Position numbers and translations under genes: made by a program. Below the pieces are notes generated by a model. That model was given only the letters and a program-made list of their open reading frames with translations, ran no database searches and was not told the origin of the DNA. DNA of 64,000 nt from Limisphaerales bacterium (lineage in GTDB: Bacteria > Verrucomicrobiota > Verrucomicrobiia > Limisphaerales > UBA9464), in assembly GCA_965284395.1 (NCBI GenBank), contig OZ260084.1, positions 595,401-659,400 of the forward strand. The letters run 5' to 3'. Numbering within the stretch: position 1 is the stretch's first letter; every line of letters begins with the position of its first letter. This document shows positions 16,532-26,086 of this stretch, one piece after another.

Positions 16532-16606
16532 TCCGCGCACGGACCACATTACCCATCTTTGGCAGTTCGACGAATCCTACCCAATCCGGGATATTGGAAG
16601 TCGTCT

Positions 16607-17266
16607 ATGAGTCGTTGGATTCCGTTCCGGTCTGCCGCACTGACTTCGCTCCTCGTATTGATCCCTGTCGCCGCCAGGGGCGACGTGACCATTACCCTGA
16701 CCAGCCAGTCGTTCGATGGTTGGACCTTCATGGAGGCCATTGATTATACCCAGTTCAACCTGACCGGTTCCTTGATGGCTGTCACGATCGACGCCTCGCT
16801 CGACGCCGACGCGCTTTCCTTCACCTATGCCAAGGACATCGCTGTCCTCCTCGATACGAAGACTCCTTCCACTGCGACTCTGGACTCAGGCAACCCCACC
16901 GGGCTCCGCCAGATTGGTGGAGGCGTCAACAATCTCTCCCTCAGCTACCAGGCCTGGCCCAACAACACAGGCGACGACTTTGTTGCCGGTACCAAGGTGA
17001 GTGGGACCGTCAGCCTCACGTCCGCCATCGTCTTCACCGGAGATGAAGGCATCGATGGCAAGCTGTGGATCGGCAACAGCTCGGAACCCTTCTCCTTCCT
17101 GGGACCCGCCACCGGCATCTGGACCGGCACGATCCTGCTCCAGGGCGTCAGCGCCGTTCCCATCGCCGGAACCCCGGTCCCGGAGGCCTCCACCTGGTCG
17201 GCAGCCGGCCTGCTCGTCCTCGGTTCGTGGTGGACCTACCGGCGCCGGAACGGACGCAATCACTGA
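16607..17266 (+). CDS. PEP-CTERM sorting-domain protein
   Basis: Track ORF 16559..17266 trimmed to ATG 16607 (signal MSRWIPFRSAALTSLLVLIPVAARG). C-terminus VPEASTWSAAGLLVLGSWWTYRRR has the PEP-like motif, TM helix and Arg cluster. Confidence 0.8.
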   Translation: MSRWIPFRSAALTSLLVLIPVAARGDVTITLTSQSFDGWTFMEAIDYTQFNLTGSLMAVTIDASLDADALSFTYAKDIAVLLDTKTPSTATLDSGNPTGLRQIGGGVNNLSLSYQAWPNNTGDDFVAGTKVSGTVSLTSAIVFTGDEGIDGKLWIGNSSEPFSFLGPATGIWTGTILLQGVSAVPIAGTPVPEASTWSAAGLLVLGSWWTYRRRNGRNH

Positions 17267-17488: not shown

Positions 17489-18211
17489 ATGACCCGGGCT
17501 GGTACTCATCGATCCTCCTGCCGCGCATTCACCCTGATTGAACTGCTGGTGGTGATTGCGATCATCGCCGTGCTGGCTGGGTTGCTGTCGCCAGCCTTGG
17601 GACGGGCGAAACGTCTGTCCCTCCGGAGTGCCTGCCTTTCCAACCTGCACCAGATCGGCCTCGGAACCGCGATGTATGCGGGTGACTTCCGGGGCCGCAT
17701 GCCCTGGGTTCCGGACGAAAACCTCCAACTGACCCCGCCCGTCGACTCAGCCGGAAAACGCTACGCGCGCACGGGCGGCTTCATGCCTGTTCTTCACCCG
17801 TACCTACCCGATGTCCGGGTCTGGCAGTCGCCACCCGTCCGGAAGATCGCCACCAACTCCTGGCAGTCGAACTTCGTCGGCCCTTGGCTGGACGGACGCG
17901 GCGAAGACCCGCTCCGCGGCACCGCCAACTACATCAGCGACAAGTTGGGCGAGACCGATCCCCAGAAGGCCCGCTACCTGCGGGATCGGACCCCGGAGGA
18001 CTGCGCCAGCCTTCGCGGCACCAGCGTCTCGGATGAGGAATGGCTGATGACCCCGTTCTTCGAGAAGCCCTGGTGGGGAGCGTTCCGGAGCGCCTGGACC
18101 GTCGGCACGAGCGAGCCACCCGCAGGTGGCTGGTCCGCGCACAACGGAGGCCGGAATCAACTCTACCTCGACTTCCATGCCTCGTGGGTGCGCCGGAACA
18201 TCGACCGATGA
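17489..18211 (+). CDS. prepilin-type N-terminal cleavage/methylation domain protein (H-X9-DG-like family)
   Basis: N-terminal [21 protein letters not shown]-terminal [12 protein letters not shown] fits the H-X9-D(G/F) motif of the PVC DUF1559-type pseudopilins. Confidence 0.85.
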
Positions 18212-18226
18212 CGGACGCAACTAGTC

Positions 18227-20854
18227 CTACCGTCGCTTCCGTTCCCGTTCCTCTTCCTCTTCTTCCTCCTCGGTCTCGGCGGACAGGACGAATCCGGCCC
18301 GGACGGGCGCCGGCATCACGGAAGCCGCCCCTCGCACCGACCGCCAGATGACCTCGTTGAGCTCAAGGTCGTCGGCTGCGTCCTCCCGCGTCAGGTCCAT
18401 CCGCTCGGATTTCTCGTGTCCCCAGGCATCCGCAAGGTTGCGGGCATTCAGATCTGCGTGCGGCACGACCGCCGTGTAGGTCGAGAGGTCCGGCTTGGAT
18501 CCGAAGCTCGCGAACATCGGCATGGCTGCCGCATCGAACTGGCTCATCGGCTTCATGCCGAGGATCAGCTCCATCGTGCGCAGCATGCTGCACGTGGAAT
18601 ACAACGTTGAGTCCACCGTGTGCTTCCGAACGTAGGGACTGATCACGTAGGCGATCGTCCGGTGGGCGTCGATGTGGTCCGATCCGTTCTGCGCATCGTC
18701 TTCCACGACGAAGATGGCCGTACTGGCCCAGAACTTGGACCGACTGACGGCTTCCACCACACGGCCCAAGGCGAGGTCATTCTCGGCCATGTAGGCCGTG
18801 GGCGTCGGCTTGCCACGACTGGTCCCGGCCGTGTGGTCATTGGGAAGCCGGACAATCTGGAGCCGGGGCATCTCGCCCTCGCGTTCAAACCGCGCCAACT
18901 CCGAAATGAATCGGTCGGCCCGGGCCAGATCGCTGTAGTCCATGTCGAAGCTTCGGAAACCCGGGTCGAAGTGCCCCTTGAGATTCGCCACCAGCGTCGT
19001 GCAGGGATCGTTCGTCGTCGCCCCGTTGTTCACGAACTCGCCGTAGCTCCGATAGGTCACCCCGGCCGCCTTCGCCCGATCCCAGAGGTATCCCCCCGCC
19101 GGGGTCGCAATCCGGAACCGCCCCTCGCTCGGATAGGCGTACTTGCGATCCTGATTGTGCCCGTAGCTCATCGGCCACATCCGCTCCACGAAGTCCGTGG
19201 CATACGCGCCCATCGTCCATTCGTGTCCGTCGGCGCTGACCTCGCTCTCGACATAGAAGTTGTCCAGCAACACGAACTCGCGCGCGAGCCGATGATGATT
19301 CGGTGTAATGGCCTCCGGGAAGAGGCACAACGTGGGATCGCCCTTCCCTTCGGGCATGTCGCCCAGCACCTGATCGTAGGTCCGGTTCTCCTTGATGATA
19401 TAGATGCAGTGGCGGATCGGCGAAGCCCCCCCGGCCACCAACGGGATCGGATGATTGGCCGGCAACTCCTTCGGCGGCGCAGGGGGCCGGCATAGGTAGG
19501 TCCGTTTCGTGAACTCCCGCAACTTCTCCTCCAGATCCTCCCGATCCTTCGGCAGGTCGATGATCGACAGCGAACCCGGGAACAACCCGGCGATGTACTC
19601 CCGGATGGTTGCCGGCACCTCGTTGCCAGGCTGCGGCCCGTATCGGTTCGCACGCGAAGCCAAGCCCTTGCCGTTCGCCACCAACAGGCGCTTCCCATCC
19701 GGGGTTACCCGTACCGAGGTCGGGTACCAACCCACCGGGATGAACCCCATGGAACGGCTGCGTCCGGGTTCGCGGACGTCGAAGACGGCCACGGCATTGA
19801 TGTTGGCGTTGGCGACGAAGAGGAGGCCTTCGTCAGGGCTCAGCGCGAGGCTGTTCGGCGTCGATCCCGGAGGTGAATCGGGCTCCAACTCCGCCGCCAG
19901 CGTCTCCGTCACCCGCCCGGTCTCAGCATCCAGAACGCTGACGGTGTTCCGGTTGGCATTGGCCACGAAGAGGAACTTTCCATTCCGGCTCAGCAGCATC
20001 TCGTTCGGATGGTCCTGCACGGCCCACCTGGCGGTCACACTTCCGGAATCCAGGTCGATCACCCCGACGCCAGCCAACCCCCAGAGGCTCACGTAAAGCC
20101 GGTGCCGCTTCGCATCCACCACGCACGCGTACGGGTAGGGTGCCGTGCTGTTCACGGCCTCGAGCAACGCCCGGGCCCGCTTGGTGATGGCTTCATCATC
20201 CACATCCCGGAGCGGATCGCCGTCACCGGTGGCCGGCGCCGTCGACCGATCCGCCAGCTCAATTTCCCGCGACACCTGGGCCGTGCCCGTCGCCCGATCC
20301 AACTTCAACTCGGTGACCGAGTGCCCCAGCACGTTCGCTGACCAAAGCCGGCTGCCATCCGGGTGCACCGCCAACCCGCTGGGTACACCCCGTTCCTTCG
20401 CATCCCTCAGGGCGAAGCTCACGGGATTCGAAAGCAGTCCGCGCGAGAAATCGAACGCGTGGACCGTTTCCTTGCCTGCGCCGCTGGCGTAGAGCCGCCG
20501 CCCGTCCTCGGAGAACGCCAGCCCATAGAACGCCTCGGCTACCGGCACCTGGCAAACGATCCGGCCTGTTCCCACGTCCACCACGATGACCTCGTGGGGC
20601 CCGTAGCCCGAATGCAATACCGCCGCGTACTTGCCCGACGGATCCACAGCCACGTTCACCGGAAAATCGCCCAAGCGAACCTGCTTCCCGACCGGATCCA
20701 ACGCCCACTGGTTGGGAAGCCGCACCGTCCCGTCCTTCCGGCTCCCGGGCCAGTTTCCTGCACCCTCGGCAGACCTGCGGACAGGCCCATCTCCCGTGGA
20801 ACAACCAGCCGCGAGGGCAAGGACGCACGCCAGTGCAGTGGGTGAGTACTTCAT
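18227..20854 (-). CDS. lipoprotein fusion: YVTN/YncE-like beta-propeller + phosphoesterase (phospholipase C / AcpA family) domain, poly-Glu C-terminus
   Basis: Track ORF trimmed to ATG 20854 (MKYSPTALACVLALAAGCS lipobox). Propeller blades (RLYVSLWGLAGVGVIDL, FLFVANANRNTVSVLD, LLFVANANINAVAVFD). The phosphoesterase hallmark IKENRTYDQVLGDM is followed by a DGHEW-type segment. Ends ETEEEEEEEERERKRR. Confidence 0.8.
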   Translation of the reverse strand: MKYSPTALACVLALAAGCSTGDGPVRRSAEGAGNWPGSRKDGTVRLPNQWALDPVGKQVRLGDFPVNVAVDPSGKYAAVLHSGYGPHEVIVVDVGTGRIVCQVPVAEAFYGLAFSEDGRRLYASGAGKETVHAFDFSRGLLSNPVSFALRDAKERGVPSGLAVHPDGSRLWSANVLGHSVTELKLDRATGTAQVSREIELADRSTAPATGDGDPLRDVDDEAITKRARALLEAVNSTAPYPYACVVDAKRHRLYVSLWGLAGVGVIDLDSGSVTARWAVQDHPNEMLLSRNGKFLFVANANRNTVSVLDAETGRVTETLAAELEPDSPPGSTPNSLALSPDEGLLFVANANINAVAVFDVREPGRSRSMGFIPVGWYPTSVRVTPDGKRLLVANGKGLASRANRYGPQPGNEVPATIREYIAGLFPGSLSIIDLPKDREDLEEKLREFTKRTYLCRPPAPPKELPANHPIPLVAGGASPIRHCIYIIKENRTYDQVLGDMPEGKGDPTLCLFPEAITPNHHRLAREFVLLDNFYVESEVSADGHEWTMGAYATDFVERMWPMSYGHNQDRKYAYPSEGRFRIATPAGGYLWDRAKAAGVTYRSYGEFVNNGATTNDPCTTLVANLKGHFDPGFRSFDMDYSDLARADRFISELARFEREGEMPRLQIVRLPNDHTAGTSRGKPTPTAYMAENDLALGRVVEAVSRSKFWASTAIFVVEDDAQNGSDHIDAHRTIAYVISPYVRKHTVDSTLYSTCSMLRTMELILGMKPMSQFDAAAMPMFASFGSKPDLSTYTAVVPHADLNARNLADAWGHEKSERMDLTREDAADDLELNEVIWRSVRGAASVMPAPVRAGFVLSAETEEEEEEEERERKRR

Positions 20855-20920
20855 GTGCCAGTCAGCATGCTCTGGGGCACGAACCCGGAACAAGTGACGA
20901 GTCGGTTACTGCCCGAACGG

Positions 20921-20988
20921 GCCGGCAACGTCCTCGTGGGCTTCCCCAGCTGTTTTCCCGGGGCGACGAGGACGTCGCCACCCCGAAA
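20921..20988. repeat. R2 repeat module between pstB and the phosphoesterase gene
   Basis: GGCCGGCAACGTCCTCGTGGGC...GGGGCGACGAGGACGTCGCCACCCCG. Confidence 0.7.
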
Positions 20989-20989
20989 C

Positions 20990-21775
20990 TCACCCATAGT
21001 GCCCACCCAGATACTCCGCCGTCCGAGGGTCACGCGGTTGACGGAAGATCCTGGCGGACGGCCCCTGCTCCACCAATTCCCCCAGCAGCAGATAGGCCGT
21101 GTCGTCACTCACCCGTCGGGCCTGTGCCAGGCTGTGCGTCACCAGCACGACCACCCGACCCGGACACAGCTCGCGCATCAGGATTTCCAGTGACTCGGTG
21201 CCGGCCGCATCCAGCGCCGAACAGGGTTCGTCCAGCAACAGCACCGACGGCTTCATCGGCAACAACCGGGCGAAGCACAGCCTCTGCTGCTGTTCGAGGG
21301 ACAGTGCTCCCGCCGGGCGGGCAAGCCGATCCCGAACCGCCTCCCACAACCCCACTCCCCGCAGGGCCTGCTCAACGGCATCCGCCACTTCCGAGCGGGC
21401 CGGACGACCAGCTTCGCCGTGGATCCGAAGGCCGAACGCGACGTTCTCGAAGATCGAAAGCGGGAGCGGATTCGGCCGTTGAAAAACCATCCCGACCTGC
21501 CGGCGCAGTTCGCGTACACAGACGTCCGAGGCCAGGATGTCCTGCCCCAGCACCCGGATGCTGCCAGTCGTCCGGGCCGCTGGATTGCGTTCATGAACAC
21601 GGTTGAGGCAACGCAACAGCGTCGTCTTGCCGCATCCGGATGGACCTACCAGCGCTGTGATCCGTCCCGCCTCGAAACGGGTGGTCACCCCGTGCAGCGC
21701 CTGAAAGCCGCCGTACCAGCACTTCAAGTCCTGGATGTCGACGCCTCCGCTGTCCGTTGAACTCGATTCGTTCAT
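20990..21775 (-). CDS. pstB: phosphate ABC transporter ATP-binding protein PstB, paralog with degenerate signature motif
   Basis: GPSGCGKTTLLRCLNR, GMVFQRPNPLPLSIFENVAFG, VLLLDEPCSALD, VLVTHS and C-terminal EYLGGHYG. The signature reads LSLEQQQRL instead of LSGGQQQRL. Confidence 0.9.
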   Translation of the reverse strand: MNESSSTDSGGVDIQDLKCWYGGFQALHGVTTRFEAGRITALVGPSGCGKTTLLRCLNRVHERNPAARTTGSIRVLGQDILASDVCVRELRRQVGMVFQRPNPLPLSIFENVAFGLRIHGEAGRPARSEVADAVEQALRGVGLWEAVRDRLARPAGALSLEQQQRLCFARLLPMKPSVLLLDEPCSALDAAGTESLEILMRELCPGRVVVLVTHSLAQARRVSDDTAYLLLGELVEQGPSARIFRQPRDPRTAEYLGGHYG

Positions 21776-22533
21776 CCGAACCTCCCCTCGACATAGGCCC
21801 TCGTCCGCTCAGCGCCACCGCCACCAAACATCGCCGCCGTCGCCCCCAGTTCCACCTGCTCACCCGCCAGCAGGAACAGCGTCCGGTCGGAAAGCCGCTT
21901 CGCCTGGGCCAGGAGATTGGTCACCAGAACCACGGTCAGTTCGGACCTCAGCTCTCGCAGGATCTCCTCGATCCGCATGGTCGTCACCGGGTCGATGGCG
22001 ATGGAGAATTCGTCCAGACATAGAATCTCCGGGTGATGCGACAGCGCCCGGGCCAGCGCAAGCCTCTGCTGCTGCCCGCCCGAGAGGCGCGTGCCCAACT
22101 GTCCCAACCGATCCTTCACCTCGTCCCAGAGCGCCGCCCGTCGCAGGGCTTGCTCCACCCTATGGTCGAGTTCCGCGCGGTCGCGAAGCCCCGCACAGCG
22201 CGCGGCAAAGGCGACGTTGTCGTAGATGGAGAGCGGGAGCCCGACCGGCAATGGTGCAACCATCCCGATCCGCCGCCGCAATTCCTCAACCGTTCCGCCG
22301 GACCGCACACAACGACCGTTCAGACAAACCGTCCCCTCGACCTGCGCACCGGGAACATGATCGATGGTCCGGTTCAGGCAGCGGAGAAGGGTCGTCTTGC
22401 CACTTTGAGCCGGACCGATCACCGCGAGGATCTCGTGTCGCACGACACCCAACTGGACGCCGCGCAACGCCAGATGGCTCCCGTAGGCCACCTGCAGGCC
22501 ATCGACGGTCAAGACGAGGTCGGGGGTACTCAT
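21772..22533 (-). CDS. pstB: PstB-like ATP-binding protein, paralog with degenerate Q-loop and H-loop
   Basis: GPAQSGKTTLLRCLNR, LSGGQQQRLALARAL and C-terminal AYVEGRFG. The Q-loop is GMVAPLP (no Gln), Walker B is ILCLDEF, and the H-loop is VLVTNL (His to Asn). ATGA overlap with the downstream pstB. Confidence 0.85.
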   Translation of the reverse strand: MSTPDLVLTVDGLQVAYGSHLALRGVQLGVVRHEILAVIGPAQSGKTTLLRCLNRTIDHVPGAQVEGTVCLNGRCVRSGGTVEELRRRIGMVAPLPVGLPLSIYDNVAFAARCAGLRDRAELDHRVEQALRRAALWDEVKDRLGQLGTRLSGGQQQRLALARALSHHPEILCLDEFSIAIDPVTTMRIEEILRELRSELTVVLVTNLLAQAKRLSDRTLFLLAGEQVELGATAAMFGGGGAERTRAYVEGRFG

Positions 22534-22536
22534 GGG

Positions 22537-23448
22537 TTACCAGCGTCGATGCGATCGCGTGCGGATCCGAATGACGATGGCGCCCGCGTTCACGAGCAAC
22601 ACGACCCCCAACAAGGTGAGGGCCGTCGCAGATGGAAGGGCTGGCCTCACCCCGGGCACCTGGGTGGACAACGTGTAGAGGTGCATCGCCAGGGCCATGC
22701 ACTGCTCGTCCAGGCGGTAGGCGAAGACGTCACCGGAGGCGACGGACTTATAGAAGACGGCCCCCGTGAAGAGGATCGGAGCCGTTTCGCCCGCGGCCCG
22801 GCTTACCTGGAGGATAATGCCGGTGAGGATCCCGGGCAGGGCATTCGGAAGGACGACTGCGCGCAGCGTCTGCCAACGCGTCGCACCCACATTCCAACAC
22901 GCCTCGCGGAAACTGGCCGGCACCGCCGCCAACGCCTCGCGCGTGCTCGTGATGATCACCGGAAGCGTCATCACCGCCAACGTCAGCGAGGCCGCGAGCA
23001 CCGAGTAGCCGAGTCGTGCCCCGTAGACGAACGCCCCGAGCCCGAACAACGCATGCACGATGCTCGGCACGCCACCGAGGTTGATCACCGCTATCTGGAT
23101 CACCCGGTTCCACCAGGAATCCCGGGCATACTCATGGAGGTAAACTGCCGCCGCCACCCCGACCGGTGTCGCCACCACCAGCGACAATCCCACCAGGTAC
23201 AACGTGCCCACCAGCGCAGGCCAAAGCCCCCCGTCCCGCATCCCGTTCCGAGGCGATTCCCAGAGCAACCTCCAATTCAATGCTGGCCATGCTTCCGTCA
23301 CCAGATGCGACAGGATCGCCACCAACGGAAGGATCAGGATCACGGTCAAGGCACCGAGAACCCAACGCACCCGCGATTCCAGACGCCTTTGGTACGCGCC
23401 CGCCGTCGTCTCGCGAAATGGGTTGGTGGAGCGGTCCGGCGCGTTCAT
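22537..23448 (-). CDS. pstA: phosphate ABC transporter permease PstA
   Basis: Track ORF 22537..23478. ATG 23448 (MNAPDRS...) gives an ATGA overlap with the pstC stop. Multi-TM protein with the EAA-like region ITSTREALAAVPASFREACWNVGATRWQT typical of PstA. Confidence 0.9.
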   Translation of the reverse strand: MNAPDRSTNPFRETTAGAYQRRLESRVRWVLGALTVILILPLVAILSHLVTEAWPALNWRLLWESPRNGMRDGGLWPALVGTLYLVGLSLVVATPVGVAAAVYLHEYARDSWWNRVIQIAVINLGGVPSIVHALFGLGAFVYGARLGYSVLAASLTLAVMTLPVIITSTREALAAVPASFREACWNVGATRWQTLRAVVLPNALPGILTGIILQVSRAAGETAPILFTGAVFYKSVASGDVFAYRLDEQCMALAMHLYTLSTQVPGVRPALPSATALTLLGVVLLVNAGAIVIRIRTRSHRRW

Positions 23449-24368
23449 GAGCCCTTCCTCCCTCCACGGACCAACCACTCGGCAAGCAGGTTGATCACCA
23501 GCGTGATTCCAAACAGCAACACGCCCGTCAGGAACAGGACGCGGTAGTGATCCGATCCCGCCGGCGCTTCACCCAGCTCAGCCGCGATGTTGGCCGTCAA
23601 CGTCCGGACCGGATCCAGGAGGCTGGTCGGGATCTGAACCGCATTCCCCGTCGCCATCAGGACCGCCATCGTCTCGCCGACGGCCCGGCCGGTCCCGAGC
23701 AGCACCGCCGCGAGGATCCCATGCCTTGCCCCAGGGAGCAGCACCCGCCAAGTTACCTGCCAACGCGTCGCCCCCATCGCCTCCGCAGCCTCGCGATGCG
23801 CATCCGGGACCGACCTCAACGCATCCTCCGCCAGCGAGACGATCACCGGCAGGCTCATCAAGGCCAGGATCAGCGCGCCGTTGAGGAGATTCACACCCAC
23901 CGCCGCGGGCGTACCCCACCGGATCACCCGGCTCATCACCGTCAACCCGACGAATCCCCAGACCACCGACGGGATCGCCGCCAGCAACTCGATGATGACC
24001 TTCAGGAACTCGCGGGTCCGCCCGCGACAGAACTCCGAAAGGAAGACCGCCGCCCCCAATCCCATGGGAACCGAGATCAACAACGAAACCCCCGTCACCG
24101 ATGCGGTCCCCGCCAGCAGGCCGAGCGCCCCGTACCTCACCCGCTGCGCCGAGGTCGGATACCATTCCACGCTTCCCAGAAACTCGGTGACCGAGAACCC
24201 CGGGCGCCCCAGCACAGGAAACGCTTCGCGAAAGATGAAGAACAGGATCGCGAGGACGAGGAACACCGAACTGAAGCCACTGATCCGGATCCACGACTCG
24301 ATCACCGCTTCGGACCACCGGATCCGTAGCGCCGTCCAGCGGGTGGGCGACAAGGTGAACCGCTTCAT
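23445..24368 (-). CDS. pstC: phosphate ABC transporter permease PstC
   Basis: Multi-TM protein. SLAEDALRSVPDAHREAAEAMGATRWQVTWRVLLP is typical of PstC. ATGA overlap with pstS. Confidence 0.9.
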   Translation of the reverse strand: MKRFTLSPTRWTALRIRWSEAVIESWIRISGFSSVFLVLAILFFIFREAFPVLGRPGFSVTEFLGSVEWYPTSAQRVRYGALGLLAGTASVTGVSLLISVPMGLGAAVFLSEFCRGRTREFLKVIIELLAAIPSVVWGFVGLTVMSRVIRWGTPAAVGVNLLNGALILALMSLPVIVSLAEDALRSVPDAHREAAEAMGATRWQVTWRVLLPGARHGILAAVLLGTGRAVGETMAVLMATGNAVQIPTSLLDPVRTLTANIAAELGEAPAGSDHYRVLFLTGVLLFGITLVINLLAEWLVRGGRKGS

Positions 24369-25297
24369 CGTTGGACCTCCATCAGGCGCCCCGTTGGCTG
24401 GCGGCGATCCGGCGGCACCGGGACGAACCCACTCGCCGGCACCCAGCCCTGCCCGGCATCCGAAAGGATCCAGCCCATGTAGTCGCGCACCTCCGGTCGC
24501 GGTTCGCCCAGGGCGTACACCAACAACGATCGCGCAATCGGATAGCGACCGCTGACCGTCGCCTCCGGGGTCGGTGCGATGGCCTCCTCCCCCGCCCGCT
24601 CCGCCACCCGCAACAATTTCACGCCCGGCACCGCGAAGCCCATCCCGCTGTATCCGATCGCGGTCGGGGTGCTCGCAATCAACTCCACCACCTCCTTCGA
24701 CCCGTTCAGCTCCAGTGTCCCCAGCCGGAAGTCCCGGTCGTTCAGGACCCGATGCCTCAGGAATTCGAAGGTCCCCCCGCTCGACTGCCGCCCAACCCTC
24801 ACAATCCGGTCATGCCGCGAATCCGGGATGCGCACGCCGAGTTCAGACCATCGGGAGATTCGCCCATCGACGGCAAAGAGCTCACGCAATTGCTCAAAGG
24901 TGATCGATTCGAGGGGATTGTCCCGATGCACGTAGATGGCCAGCGCATCGTAGCCCACCAGGTATTCCCTAGGCGCCTTGCCAGTCGCGGCCAACGCAGC
25001 CTGACCTTCCGCCCCCTTCAGATCCCGACTGCTGTTCGCCAGGTCCGCCGAGCCTCGGATCAGCGCGGCAATCCCAACCCCGGACCCGCCACCTGAGACC
25101 TCAACCCGCACTCCCGGCTCCACCGCCGCATAGGCCTCCGCCCACGCCTGCGCCAGGTTGACCATCGTATCCGACCCCTTGCCCAGGATCGGAGGCCCCC
25201 CAGCCGGCGGCCGCGAACAACCCGACATGAGGACCACGAACAGCAGCATCGCGGATCGCGACCCTCCAGCCGATCGAGGAACCCTCCGAATCATCAC
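24365..25297 (-). CDS. pstS: phosphate-binding lipoprotein PstS (PBP-like)
   Basis: Lipobox LLFVVLMSGCS; GSDTMVNLAQAWAEAY and VSGGGSGVGIAAL motifs of PstS-family binding proteins; first gene of the pst operon. Confidence 0.85.
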   Translation of the reverse strand: MMIRRVPRSAGGSRSAMLLFVVLMSGCSRPPAGGPPILGKGSDTMVNLAQAWAEAYAAVEPGVRVEVSGGGSGVGIAALIRGSADLANSSRDLKGAEGQAALAATGKAPREYLVGYDALAIYVHRDNPLESITFEQLRELFAVDGRISRWSELGVRIPDSRHDRIVRVGRQSSGGTFEFLRHRVLNDRDFRLGTLELNGSKEVVELIASTPTAIGYSGMGFAVPGVKLLRVAERAGEEAIAPTPEATVSGRYPIARSLLVYALGEPRPEVRDYMGWILSDAGQGWVPASGFVPVPPDRRQPTGRLMEVQR

Positions 25298-25414
25298 CCA
25301 CCCACGCTACGGTCCACAGGGGCTTCCGGGAATTCCCTGATCCCTCCAAGGGCCAATCGTAGCGCCGCCGCCACATCCCCGACACACGATCCCTCCTGCG
25401 TTGCCTTCGTTGCG

Positions 25415-25678
25415 TCACCCTTTGCCACCCGCCTGATGGATGATCTCGGCGACCTCGGCAGATGTCGGCAAGGATTCCTTGGATCGGTCCCGCTTCACTG
25501 CCGGACTTTGAGCCCAGTCCACGCGCGCCTTCGCCTCGTCCTGCGCCGGGACCAGACGGGCCACCGTCTTGCCCCGCTGCGTGATGACGATTTCTTCCCC
25601 CGCTCCAATCCACGCGAGGAGCGTGCTGTAGCGGTTTCTGAGGTCTCGAACGGTTGCCGTCTTCAAGATGCTCCACAT
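25415..25678 (-). CDS. Phd/YefM-family type II antitoxin, no adjacent toxin gene
   Basis: MWSILKTATVRDLRNRYSTLLAWIGAGEEIVITQRGKTVARLVP is the classic Phd/YefM N-terminal fold signature. ATG 25678 (the track starts at GTG 25687). Confidence 0.75.
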   Translation of the reverse strand: MWSILKTATVRDLRNRYSTLLAWIGAGEEIVITQRGKTVARLVPAQDEAKARVDWAQSPAVKRDRSKESLPTSAEVAEIIHQAGGKG

Positions 25679-25686
25679 TTGGAGCA
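25669..25686. promoter_or_regulatory. inverted repeat TGCTCCA-N4-TGGAGCA overlapping the antitoxin start codon (possible autoregulatory operator)
   Basis: Sequence TGCTCCACATTTGGAGCA read directly, with 7-bp perfect arms. Confidence 0.35.
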
Positions 25687-25723
25687 CATGGATGGACTGT
25701 CAATTGGGGGACCAGCGCCCCCC

Positions 25724-26086
25724 TCACTTCGCCCCCACGCAGTAGAGGAACTTGTCCGACCGGATCAACGGGCGGCTTCCGTCCACGGTCGGGCTCGCGT
25801 CGAAGCTGCTGCGATCCCGCAGGGCGTTCCGGGCGACGAGTTCAAACGTGGGCTTCGCCGCCAGGACCACGGTCCCGCCCCCACGATCCACGGCGTGGAT
25901 CCTCCCGTCGGCCAGCACGGGTGACGCATAGAATTGCGAGGCCTTCGGGATGCGCTCCTCGTAGACCAGCTCCCCATCCACCAGCGGCGTGCTGGACGCG
26001 TACCCGTGATCGCGGACCTTCGGCTCGTCCGGTTGTACCGCGGCAACATCCTTCTTCCACAGCAGGCTTCCGTCCCCACGCTTCAG
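25724..26086 (-). pseudogene. 5'-truncated remnant of a PQQ-like beta-propeller gene (last ~1.5 blades only)
   Basis: My translation gives YKLKRGDGSLLWKKDVAAVQPDEPKVRDHGYASSTPLVDGELVYEERIPKASQFYASPVLADGRIHAVDRGGGTVVLAAKPTFELVARNAL...FLYCVGAK. This parallels the C-terminus of the 12986..14368 product (GQELYRERLGGSHSASPLLADGLIHIASREGDIHVIRPGRKFELVAKNNL...ALYRIAA). Homology stops at an R1 repeat, with no signal peptide or N-terminal blades. Confidence 0.7.

Follow-up and report, generated by a model that had tools for sequence, protein, structure and literature searches.

We describe a pair of unlike PstB-type ATPases encoded by a stretch of DNA from a Limisphaerales bacterium (64,000 nucleotides; GenBank assembly GCA_965284395.1, contig OZ260084.1, positions 595,401 to 659,400 of the forward strand; hereafter the window, in whose own numbering coordinates are given). 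The pair belongs to a phosphate-uptake (pst) operon. Its members, PstB', proximal to the permease genes, and PstB, distal to them, each depart from the canonical PstB motifs, and the departures of one are complementary to those of the other, a pattern which, judged on aligned sequences, is far beyond chance. The best reading of this pattern, to which we assign a probability of roughly 0.78, is that PstB' and PstB form an obligate heterodimer in which one ATP site is consensus and the other degenerate.

The operon is compact, lies on the minus strand and comprises five genes in the order pstS-pstC-pstA-pstB'-pstB, with the ATPase pair directly after pstSCA:

24365..25297, minus strand: pstS, phosphate-binding protein, first gene of the operon (TIGR02136, 181 bits, under the cut-off of 206.6; PF12849)
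23445..24368, minus strand: pstC, permease (TIGR02138, 267 bits, over the cut-off of 196)
22537..23478, minus strand: pstA, permease (TIGR00974, 260 bits, over the cut-off of 193)
21772..22533, minus strand: pstB', proximal ATPase of 253 amino acids (TIGR00972, 265.3 bits), signature intact, own half of the ATP site degenerate
21772..21775, minus strand: four-nucleotide ATGA overlap of the proximal TGA stop and the distal ATG start (...TTC GGA TGA / ATG AAC)
20990..21775, minus strand: pstB, distal ATPase of 261 amino acids (TIGR00972, 292.9 bits), catalytic motifs all canonical, signature degenerate

In addition, pstS and pstC share a four-nucleotide overlap, three nucleotides separate the TAA stop of pstA from the ATG of pstB', and GGAGG stands five nucleotides 5' of the distal ATG. 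A preliminary description of this DNA, made from the sequence alone, had given the two ATPase reading frames and their ATGA overlap exactly.

For both ATPases the top family is TIGR00972, the PstB equivalog, matched end to end, and the Pfam family ABC_tran is present in each; both scores fall under the curated TIGR00972 cut-off of 343.2 bits. The copies are 44% identical to one another, while each is approximately 42% identical to E. coli PstB. A tblastn search of the 64-kb window gave no other PstB-like gene. An AlphaFold model of the proximal copy (predicted local distance difference test score 83, predicted template modelling score 0.82) has the form of a normal nucleotide-binding domain, is least confident at the former Q-loop (residues 94-97), and finds its top PDB matches in E. 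coli PstB within PstSCAB (9k3s and 9k3x; template modelling scores of 0.80-0.86, with 0.84-0.86 for the best fold match). According to this model, the proximal protein is folded as a PstB-like nucleotide-binding domain.

Motifs were placed by HMMER alignment to the solved E. coli PstB (9k3x) and by MAFFT alignments, the canonical E. coli set being GPSGCGKS, GMVFQ, LSGGQQQRL, LDEP, CSALD and VTH. Every substitution sits within its named motif, which bears out the motif changes that the preliminary description had claimed for both copies:

22393..22416, minus strand: proximal P-loop GPAQSGKT (residues 40-47), Lys46 and Thr47 kept, fourth-position Gly replaced by Gln
22234..22266, minus strand: proximal former Q-loop GMVAPLPVGLP, Gln replaced by Pro94
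22060..22086, minus strand: proximal signature LSGGQQQRL (residues 150-158), canonical; would serve the consensus site
21991..22023, minus strand: proximal Walker B and D-loop LCLDEFSIAID, Asp174 and Glu175 kept, Pro replaced by Phe176, D-loop Ser replaced by Ile
21913..21930, minus strand: proximal H-loop VLVTNL, His replaced by Asn206
21623..21646, minus strand: distal Walker A GPSGCGKT, canonical
21461..21493, minus strand: distal Q-loop GMVFQRPNPLP, Gln99 kept
21278..21304, minus strand: distal signature LSLEQQQRL (residues 158-166), GG replaced by LE, degenerate; would face the proximal P-loop
21209..21241, minus strand: distal Walker B and D-loop LLLDEPCSALD, canonical
21131..21148, minus strand: distal H-loop VLVTHS, His214 kept

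Neither copy holds the complete canonical set in one polypeptide: the proximal one is without the Q-loop Gln and the H-loop His and reads DEF and GPAQSGKT, and the distal one reads LSLEQ. The proximal D-loop has, moreover, passed from CSALD to SIAID. In the proximal copy, Tyr is retained in the A-loop, Lys and Thr in Walker A, and Asp and Glu in Walker B. The preliminary description had called the proximal P-loop altered, and GPAQSGKT is indeed so, but the motif GxxxxGK[ST] still fits, and the retention of the Lys, Asp, Glu and A-loop Tyr had gone unmentioned.

In ATP-binding cassette (ABC) proteins, one ATP site is composed of the Walker A motif, the Walker B motif and the A-, Q- and H-loops of one domain together with the signature of its partner, and the D-loops are central (PMC7756269). 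The preliminary description had reasoned from this rule, which is the accepted one. Its application here rests on alignment to E. coli PstB for the assignment of residues to the two composite sites, and places all of the catalytic-motif substitutions in a single site, save for the proximal D-loop change of Ser to Ile at the dimer centre. We favour an obligate heterodimer because either homodimer would have two defective sites, and the heterodimer alone would have one complete site; in this, and by every comparative test made, the earlier heterodimer proposal is supported. Heterodimer formation and catalytic asymmetry are features that we infer from these motifs.

In the mechanism we propose, each gene would encode one half of the ATPase motor that powers the PstS-PstC-PstA importer, the halves being unlike, and the overlapping stop and start codons would favour their synthesis in a 1:1 ratio. 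The consensus site would unite the distal Walker A, Walker B, Q-loop and H-loop with the proximal LSGGQ; it would be complete and would hydrolyse ATP. The degenerate site would unite the proximal GPAQSGKT, Q-loop Pro, DEF and H-loop Asn with the distal L(S/Q)LEQ. It would keep the residues which hold the nucleotide (Tyr of the A-loop, Lys and Thr of Walker A, Asp and Glu of Walker B) and be without those which sense or attack the gamma-phosphate. Since the Walker B Glu, the Walker A Lys and the A-loop Tyr are kept, ATP binding is probably retained there, and the site most probably binds ATP, perhaps stably, with slow or no turnover, in the manner of the degenerate sites of TM287/288, TAP, CFTR and Pdr5 (PMC3971661, PMC7756269). 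The importer would then use one hydrolysis per cycle, the second site being structural or allosteric.

Both types of ATPase recur well beyond the window. We drew on the best 120 homologues of each copy, on a genome scan with one genome per species, from which 80 loci were fetched, and on 77 gene pairs, the window pair included. The scan returned at least 589 stretches with the proximal type, across many phyla, and their carriers are labelled Acidobacteriota, Verrucomicrobiota, Myxococcota/Polyangiaceae, Poribacteria, Fibrobacterota and Eisenbacteria, among others. The best 120 proximal homologues show 64-96% identity, and those with a named source include Acidobacteria, Rokubacteria and Myxococcales. 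The Q-loop Pro, LSGGQQQRL, LDEFSIA[IV]D and VTNL are found in 120 of 120, and the P-loop is GPA[QH]SGK with the single exception of one GPAGSGK. Among the best 120 distal homologues, all have canonical catalytic motifs and none has GG in the signature, which is mostly LQLEQQQKL.

The 77 pairs give the same picture residue by residue. On the proximal side, the changes of Gln to Pro, His to Asn, Pro to Phe and D-loop Ser to Ile are each present in 77/77, and that of the P-loop Gly to Gln in 76/77; PLPVGLP and Asn-Leu each occur in every pair. The Lys, Asp and Glu are kept in 77/77 and the A-loop Tyr in 76/77, while the signature is LSGGQ in 76 and ISGGQ in the remaining one. On the distal side, the signature Gly residues have become Leu (77/77) and Glu (75/77), with the Q-loop Gln kept throughout and the H-loop His kept in 76 of the 77, the exception being X. 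The window pair is the most divergent that we have seen (62% identical to the others for the proximal protein, 53% for the distal), and its distal signature keeps a Ser (LSLEQ) where most relatives have LQLEQ. We also scanned for positions that are conserved in canonical PstB and fixed to another residue in each family: of 17 such differences in the proximal family, 12 affect the ATP-site motifs of that family itself (5.6 expected, P=5e-4) and the signature has none, and 3 of the 11 in the distal family fall in the signature and none at catalytic residues, although conservation at motif positions is inflated in this comparison because the canonical reference set was picked by motif.

In each of the 76 loci, out of the 80, that have enough downstream DNA, the two ATPase types co-occur and are adjacent, with the distal type after the proximal type on the same strand; these loci are from Acidobacteriota, Verrucomicrobiota, Myxococcota, Poribacteria, Fibrobacterota and other groups. 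The gene order pstS-pstC-pstA-pstB'-pstB holds in nearly all 80. The preliminary description had suggested surveying related genomes for the joint occurrence of LSLEQ-type signatures and Q- and H-loop changes, and the changes are complementary in each of the 76 loci as well as in one partial locus (L001), where a distal-type gene begins after the proximal type, in agreement with the pairing. The four-nucleotide overlap which had been taken to favour joint synthesis recurs in 44 of 76 pairs when the start codon nearest the stop is taken, a rule that favours short distances.

Locus L001 (JBIKWS010000331.1) is also the closest genome match to the window operon, with 85-91% identity over pstS, pstC, pstA and pstB'. 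It is a 5-kb contig of a metagenome-assembled genome labelled Cyanophyceae, and may be mis-binned, because no other carrier among the 80 loci is labelled cyanobacterial.

This constancy of pairing bears on the view that each protein forms a separate homodimer on PstCA, so that the transporter would exist in two alternative versions, much as has been proposed for the non-equivalent tandem PstB1 and PstB2 of Enterococcus faecalis. In that species, the roles of the tandem pstB genes are non-overlapping and an excess of PstB2 can replace PstB1 (PMC12096839); paralogs in tandem are therefore not necessarily obligate partners. In the present family, however, a PstB' homodimer would have two sites without the Q-loop Gln and the H-loop His, a PstB homodimer would have two sites with LxLEQ, and the two types are never found apart in the 76 loci, their start and stop codons usually overlapping. 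We regard two separate homodimers as very unlikely, and rejected them on the grounds that neither would have a complete site and that the genes are never apart.

Constraint on the two families is similar. Mean pairwise identity is 0.705 for the proximal and 0.732 for the distal family, near-invariant columns number 110 of 253 and 94 of 256, respectively, and the pairwise distances of the two families correlate (r=0.77). In a neighbour-joining tree, which carries no support values, each family is one clade and the window copies are basal in both. That both copies score under the curated PstB cut-off could be taken as a sign that one of them is a decaying duplicate and the complementarity a coincidence. 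Against this, neither reading frame is disrupted, the deviant residues are the same from phylum to phylum, invariant columns are as numerous in the proximal family as in the distal one, and the same pattern recurs in a second lineage (see below). Decay into a pseudogene was rejected in view of conservation across the 77 pairs and the similar constraint on both families, and we give it a negligible chance.

The biases of the motif scan and of the overlap count weigh against the heterodimer with one degenerate site, as do several other points. Firstly, the catalytic Walker B Glu (Glu175) is kept in the degenerate half in 77/77 pairs, whereas most known degenerate sites, those of exporters included, replace it; here it is the Q-loop Gln and the P-loop Gly that are replaced, and the label of degenerate derives only from the Q-loop, the H-loop, the P-loop and the signature of the partner. 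Secondly, when the H-loop His of the second nucleotide-binding domain of MRP1 is changed to Asn or Gln, transport is near wild type (PMC7756269), so that residual hydrolysis at the degenerate site is possible. Thirdly, an acidic residue at the second Gly of the signature might hinder tight closure round ATP, in which case the analogy with the 'ATP glue' of exporters would fail. Finally, the D-loop Ile of the proximal copy (77/77) lies at the centre of the dimer interface beside the consensus site, which is therefore not strictly canonical. The preliminary description had held that site to be fully canonical without mention of the D-loop, which is a mild overstatement.

The remodelled pocket admits of another interpretation. 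The main rival to our reading, which likewise assumes a heterodimer of PstB' and PstB, takes the altered pocket for a conserved sensor or regulatory site that gates uptake, for example by reading cytosolic phosphate, ADP or another nucleotide, or by docking partners of the PhoU/PhoR type. The replacement residues are invariant (the P-loop Gln in 76/77; PLPVGLP, Phe, Ile and Asn-Leu in 77/77; Leu-Glu in the partner), which points to a new property under selection and not to simple loss, but conserved deviant residues are typical of the ordinary degenerate ATP sites of exporters too. Such sites can act positively, since function is lost when canonical motifs are put back into the degenerate Pdr5 site (PMC7756269). 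All of the nucleotide-holding residues are kept here, however, so ATP is the simplest ligand. A PhoU-like gene is found 5' of pstS in approximately 54 of the 80 loci, yet no phoU was detected by tblastn in the 64-kb window. On balance, we consider a sensor of this sort unlikely.

An obligate heterodimer with one degenerate site has partial counterparts among known transporters. The parts and their order, pstS, pstC, pstA and then the ATPase, are those of E. coli PstSCAB (PDB 9k3x/9k3s), in the structure of which PstA and PstC each carry a PstB subunit, the two being identical products of a single pstB gene (PMC12976172). The present operon differs in encoding two different subunits, neither with the full motif set and both below the TIGR00972 cut-off. 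Adjacent pstB paralogs in a pst operon are likewise found in Firmicutes (PstB1/PstB2, or PstBA/PstBB, in E. faecalis and Bacillus subtilis), and the B. subtilis proteins have been modelled as a pair on PstCA (PMC11466899). Both Firmicute copies are canonical, the E. faecalis motifs being taken as reported in PMC12096839, in contrast to the 44% identical copies with complementary motif losses described here. The E. faecalis study, from 2025, states that tandem pstB paralogs were previously unstudied (PMC12096839).

Closer in their motifs are the asymmetric exporters TM287/288, TAP1/2, CFTR, MRP1 and Pdr5, in which two non-identical ATP domains have their substitutions in one composite site and the signature of the partner is altered; the behaviour of their degenerate sites has been described (PMC3971661, PMC7756269), and reviews hold such sites to be frequent in exporters (PMC3971661). 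The degenerate signature of yeast Pdr5, LNVEQ (PMC7756269), is strikingly similar to the L(S/Q)LEQ of the present family, and loss of the H-loop residue is common to both groups (PMC7756269). The exporters have a membrane fold that differs from that of PstSCA. Among binding-protein-dependent importers, RbsA and NupO of B. subtilis resemble the present case in having two ATP sites of which one is predicted to lack activity; these are fused single polypeptides of type II importers without the Walker A Lys, and are the only instances of importer degenerate sites noted in the survey of that species (PMC11466899). The present pair, by contrast, consists of separate proteins of a type I importer and keeps the Walker A Lys. 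We found no description of a degenerate-site PstB in the full-text literature searched, the coverage of which is limited and no proof of absence.

A second and milder form of the asymmetry was met in a search of 1.84 billion cluster representatives, in which the proximal family collapses to few representatives. A separate group (P0260, P0262, P0273 and P0295) has a normal P-loop and DEP, with the Q-loop Gln replaced by Ala or Ser and the H-loop His by Asn. In the loci of this group (L081:1802-3203, L083:5001-6550 and L085:3-921) the H-loop is VTNN, and the gene stands after permease genes where upstream DNA is present (L081 and L083). Its partner has canonical catalytic motifs and a signature of LSAEQQQRL or LPLEQQQRL in three of three contexts. 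Because this milder lineage is also paired, complementary asymmetry exists in at least two grades. The milder lineage may represent an intermediate step or have arisen independently, a matter for which the neighbour-joining tree, being without support values, was not used.

On a more speculative note, the remodelled second site may be a purpose-built control site, through which a widespread class of bacterial phosphate importers would spend a single ATP per cycle and couple uptake to the nucleotide or phosphate state of the cell. Among importers, such a site would be what the regulatory degenerate sites are in CFTR or TAP, and may have arisen stepwise, first via the milder lineage that is without only the Q-loop Gln and the H-loop His. 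We hold this to be possible but unlikely.

Other non-canonical PstB forms were also seen. In the search of cluster representatives, eight (P0302, P0334, P0340, P0309, P0356, P0368, P0296 and P0315) have single-residue deviations in the signature, namely LSLGQ, LSVGQ, LSIGQ, LSAGQ and LSPGQ; the range of asymmetric or non-canonical PstB forms may be wider than the two lineages described here show. In a locus from Poribacteria (L035:7635-9903), further genes 3' of the asymmetric pair encode a short permease and a third PstB-like protein. The gene for the latter reads GPSNSGKT, LSNGQQQRL and VTNK, keeps the Q-loop Gln, and is followed by a PhoU gene (PF01895, 153 bits). Loci L034, L039, L052, L055, L061, L068, L071 and L078-L080 resemble this one. 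In two Verrucomicrobiota (L015:584-2044 and L027:577-2062), a canonical pstB (GPSGCGKS, LSGGQQQRL, DEP) and then phoU stand directly 5' of the asymmetric operon, so that canonical and asymmetric importer ATPases are neighbours in some genomes.

The PhoU-like gene of the approximately 54 loci (tblastn; L002-L077, e.g. L002:2135-2791 and L022:2067-2699) is on the same strand as pstS, about 1 kb 5' of it. The usual layout there would be phoU-pstS-pstC-pstA-pstB'-pstB, as against E. coli, in which phoU comes after pstB.

Around the operon of the window, a consensus scan of positions 20500-25800 for promoters and terminators gave no match. A GC-rich hairpin (GGCGACG-tcct-CGTCGCC; 20962-20979, minus strand), which begins 11 nucleotides past the distal pstB stop, has no T tract after it and is absent from the output of the terminator scan. 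The next gene begins 96 nucleotides past the distal pstB, lies outside the ATPase pair and is given as context only:

18227..20893, minus strand: protein of 888 amino acids, a seven-bladed beta-propeller (PF10282) fused to a phosphoesterase domain (PF04185)

This protein is likely a phosphate-scavenging enzyme; a tblastn comparison with the 80 related loci gave no assigned match. Two open reading frames further along, both on the plus strand, were judged by eye: that at 16559-17266 has a PEP-CTERM-like tail (VPEAST, a hydrophobic segment and RRR), and that at 17489-18211 has a prepilin-type N-terminal segment. PEP-CTERM-like tails and prepilin-type N-termini are common in Planctomycetota and Verrucomicrobiota.

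Degenerate ATP sites are a textbook feature of exporters. Asymmetric PstB pairs are a widespread and conserved class on a type I importer, and one which is apparently unannotated: neither subunit reaches the curated PstB cut-off, and a proximal-type homologue (P0042) has only a generic ABC name in NCBI. If the heterodimer reading is true, type I importers include a large and strictly conserved family in which one ATP site is consensus and the other degenerate, and this family would offer a natural test of whether a binding-protein-dependent importer must hydrolyse one ATP per cycle or two. The prediction may be directly testable, because at least one carrier appears to be cultured (Limisphaera sp. 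4302-co, locus L022). What phosphate scavenging costs in energy would likewise have to be estimated anew for abundant soil, freshwater and sponge-associated phyla, namely the Acidobacteriota, Verrucomicrobiota, Planctomycetota-like bacteria, Myxococcota and Poribacteria.

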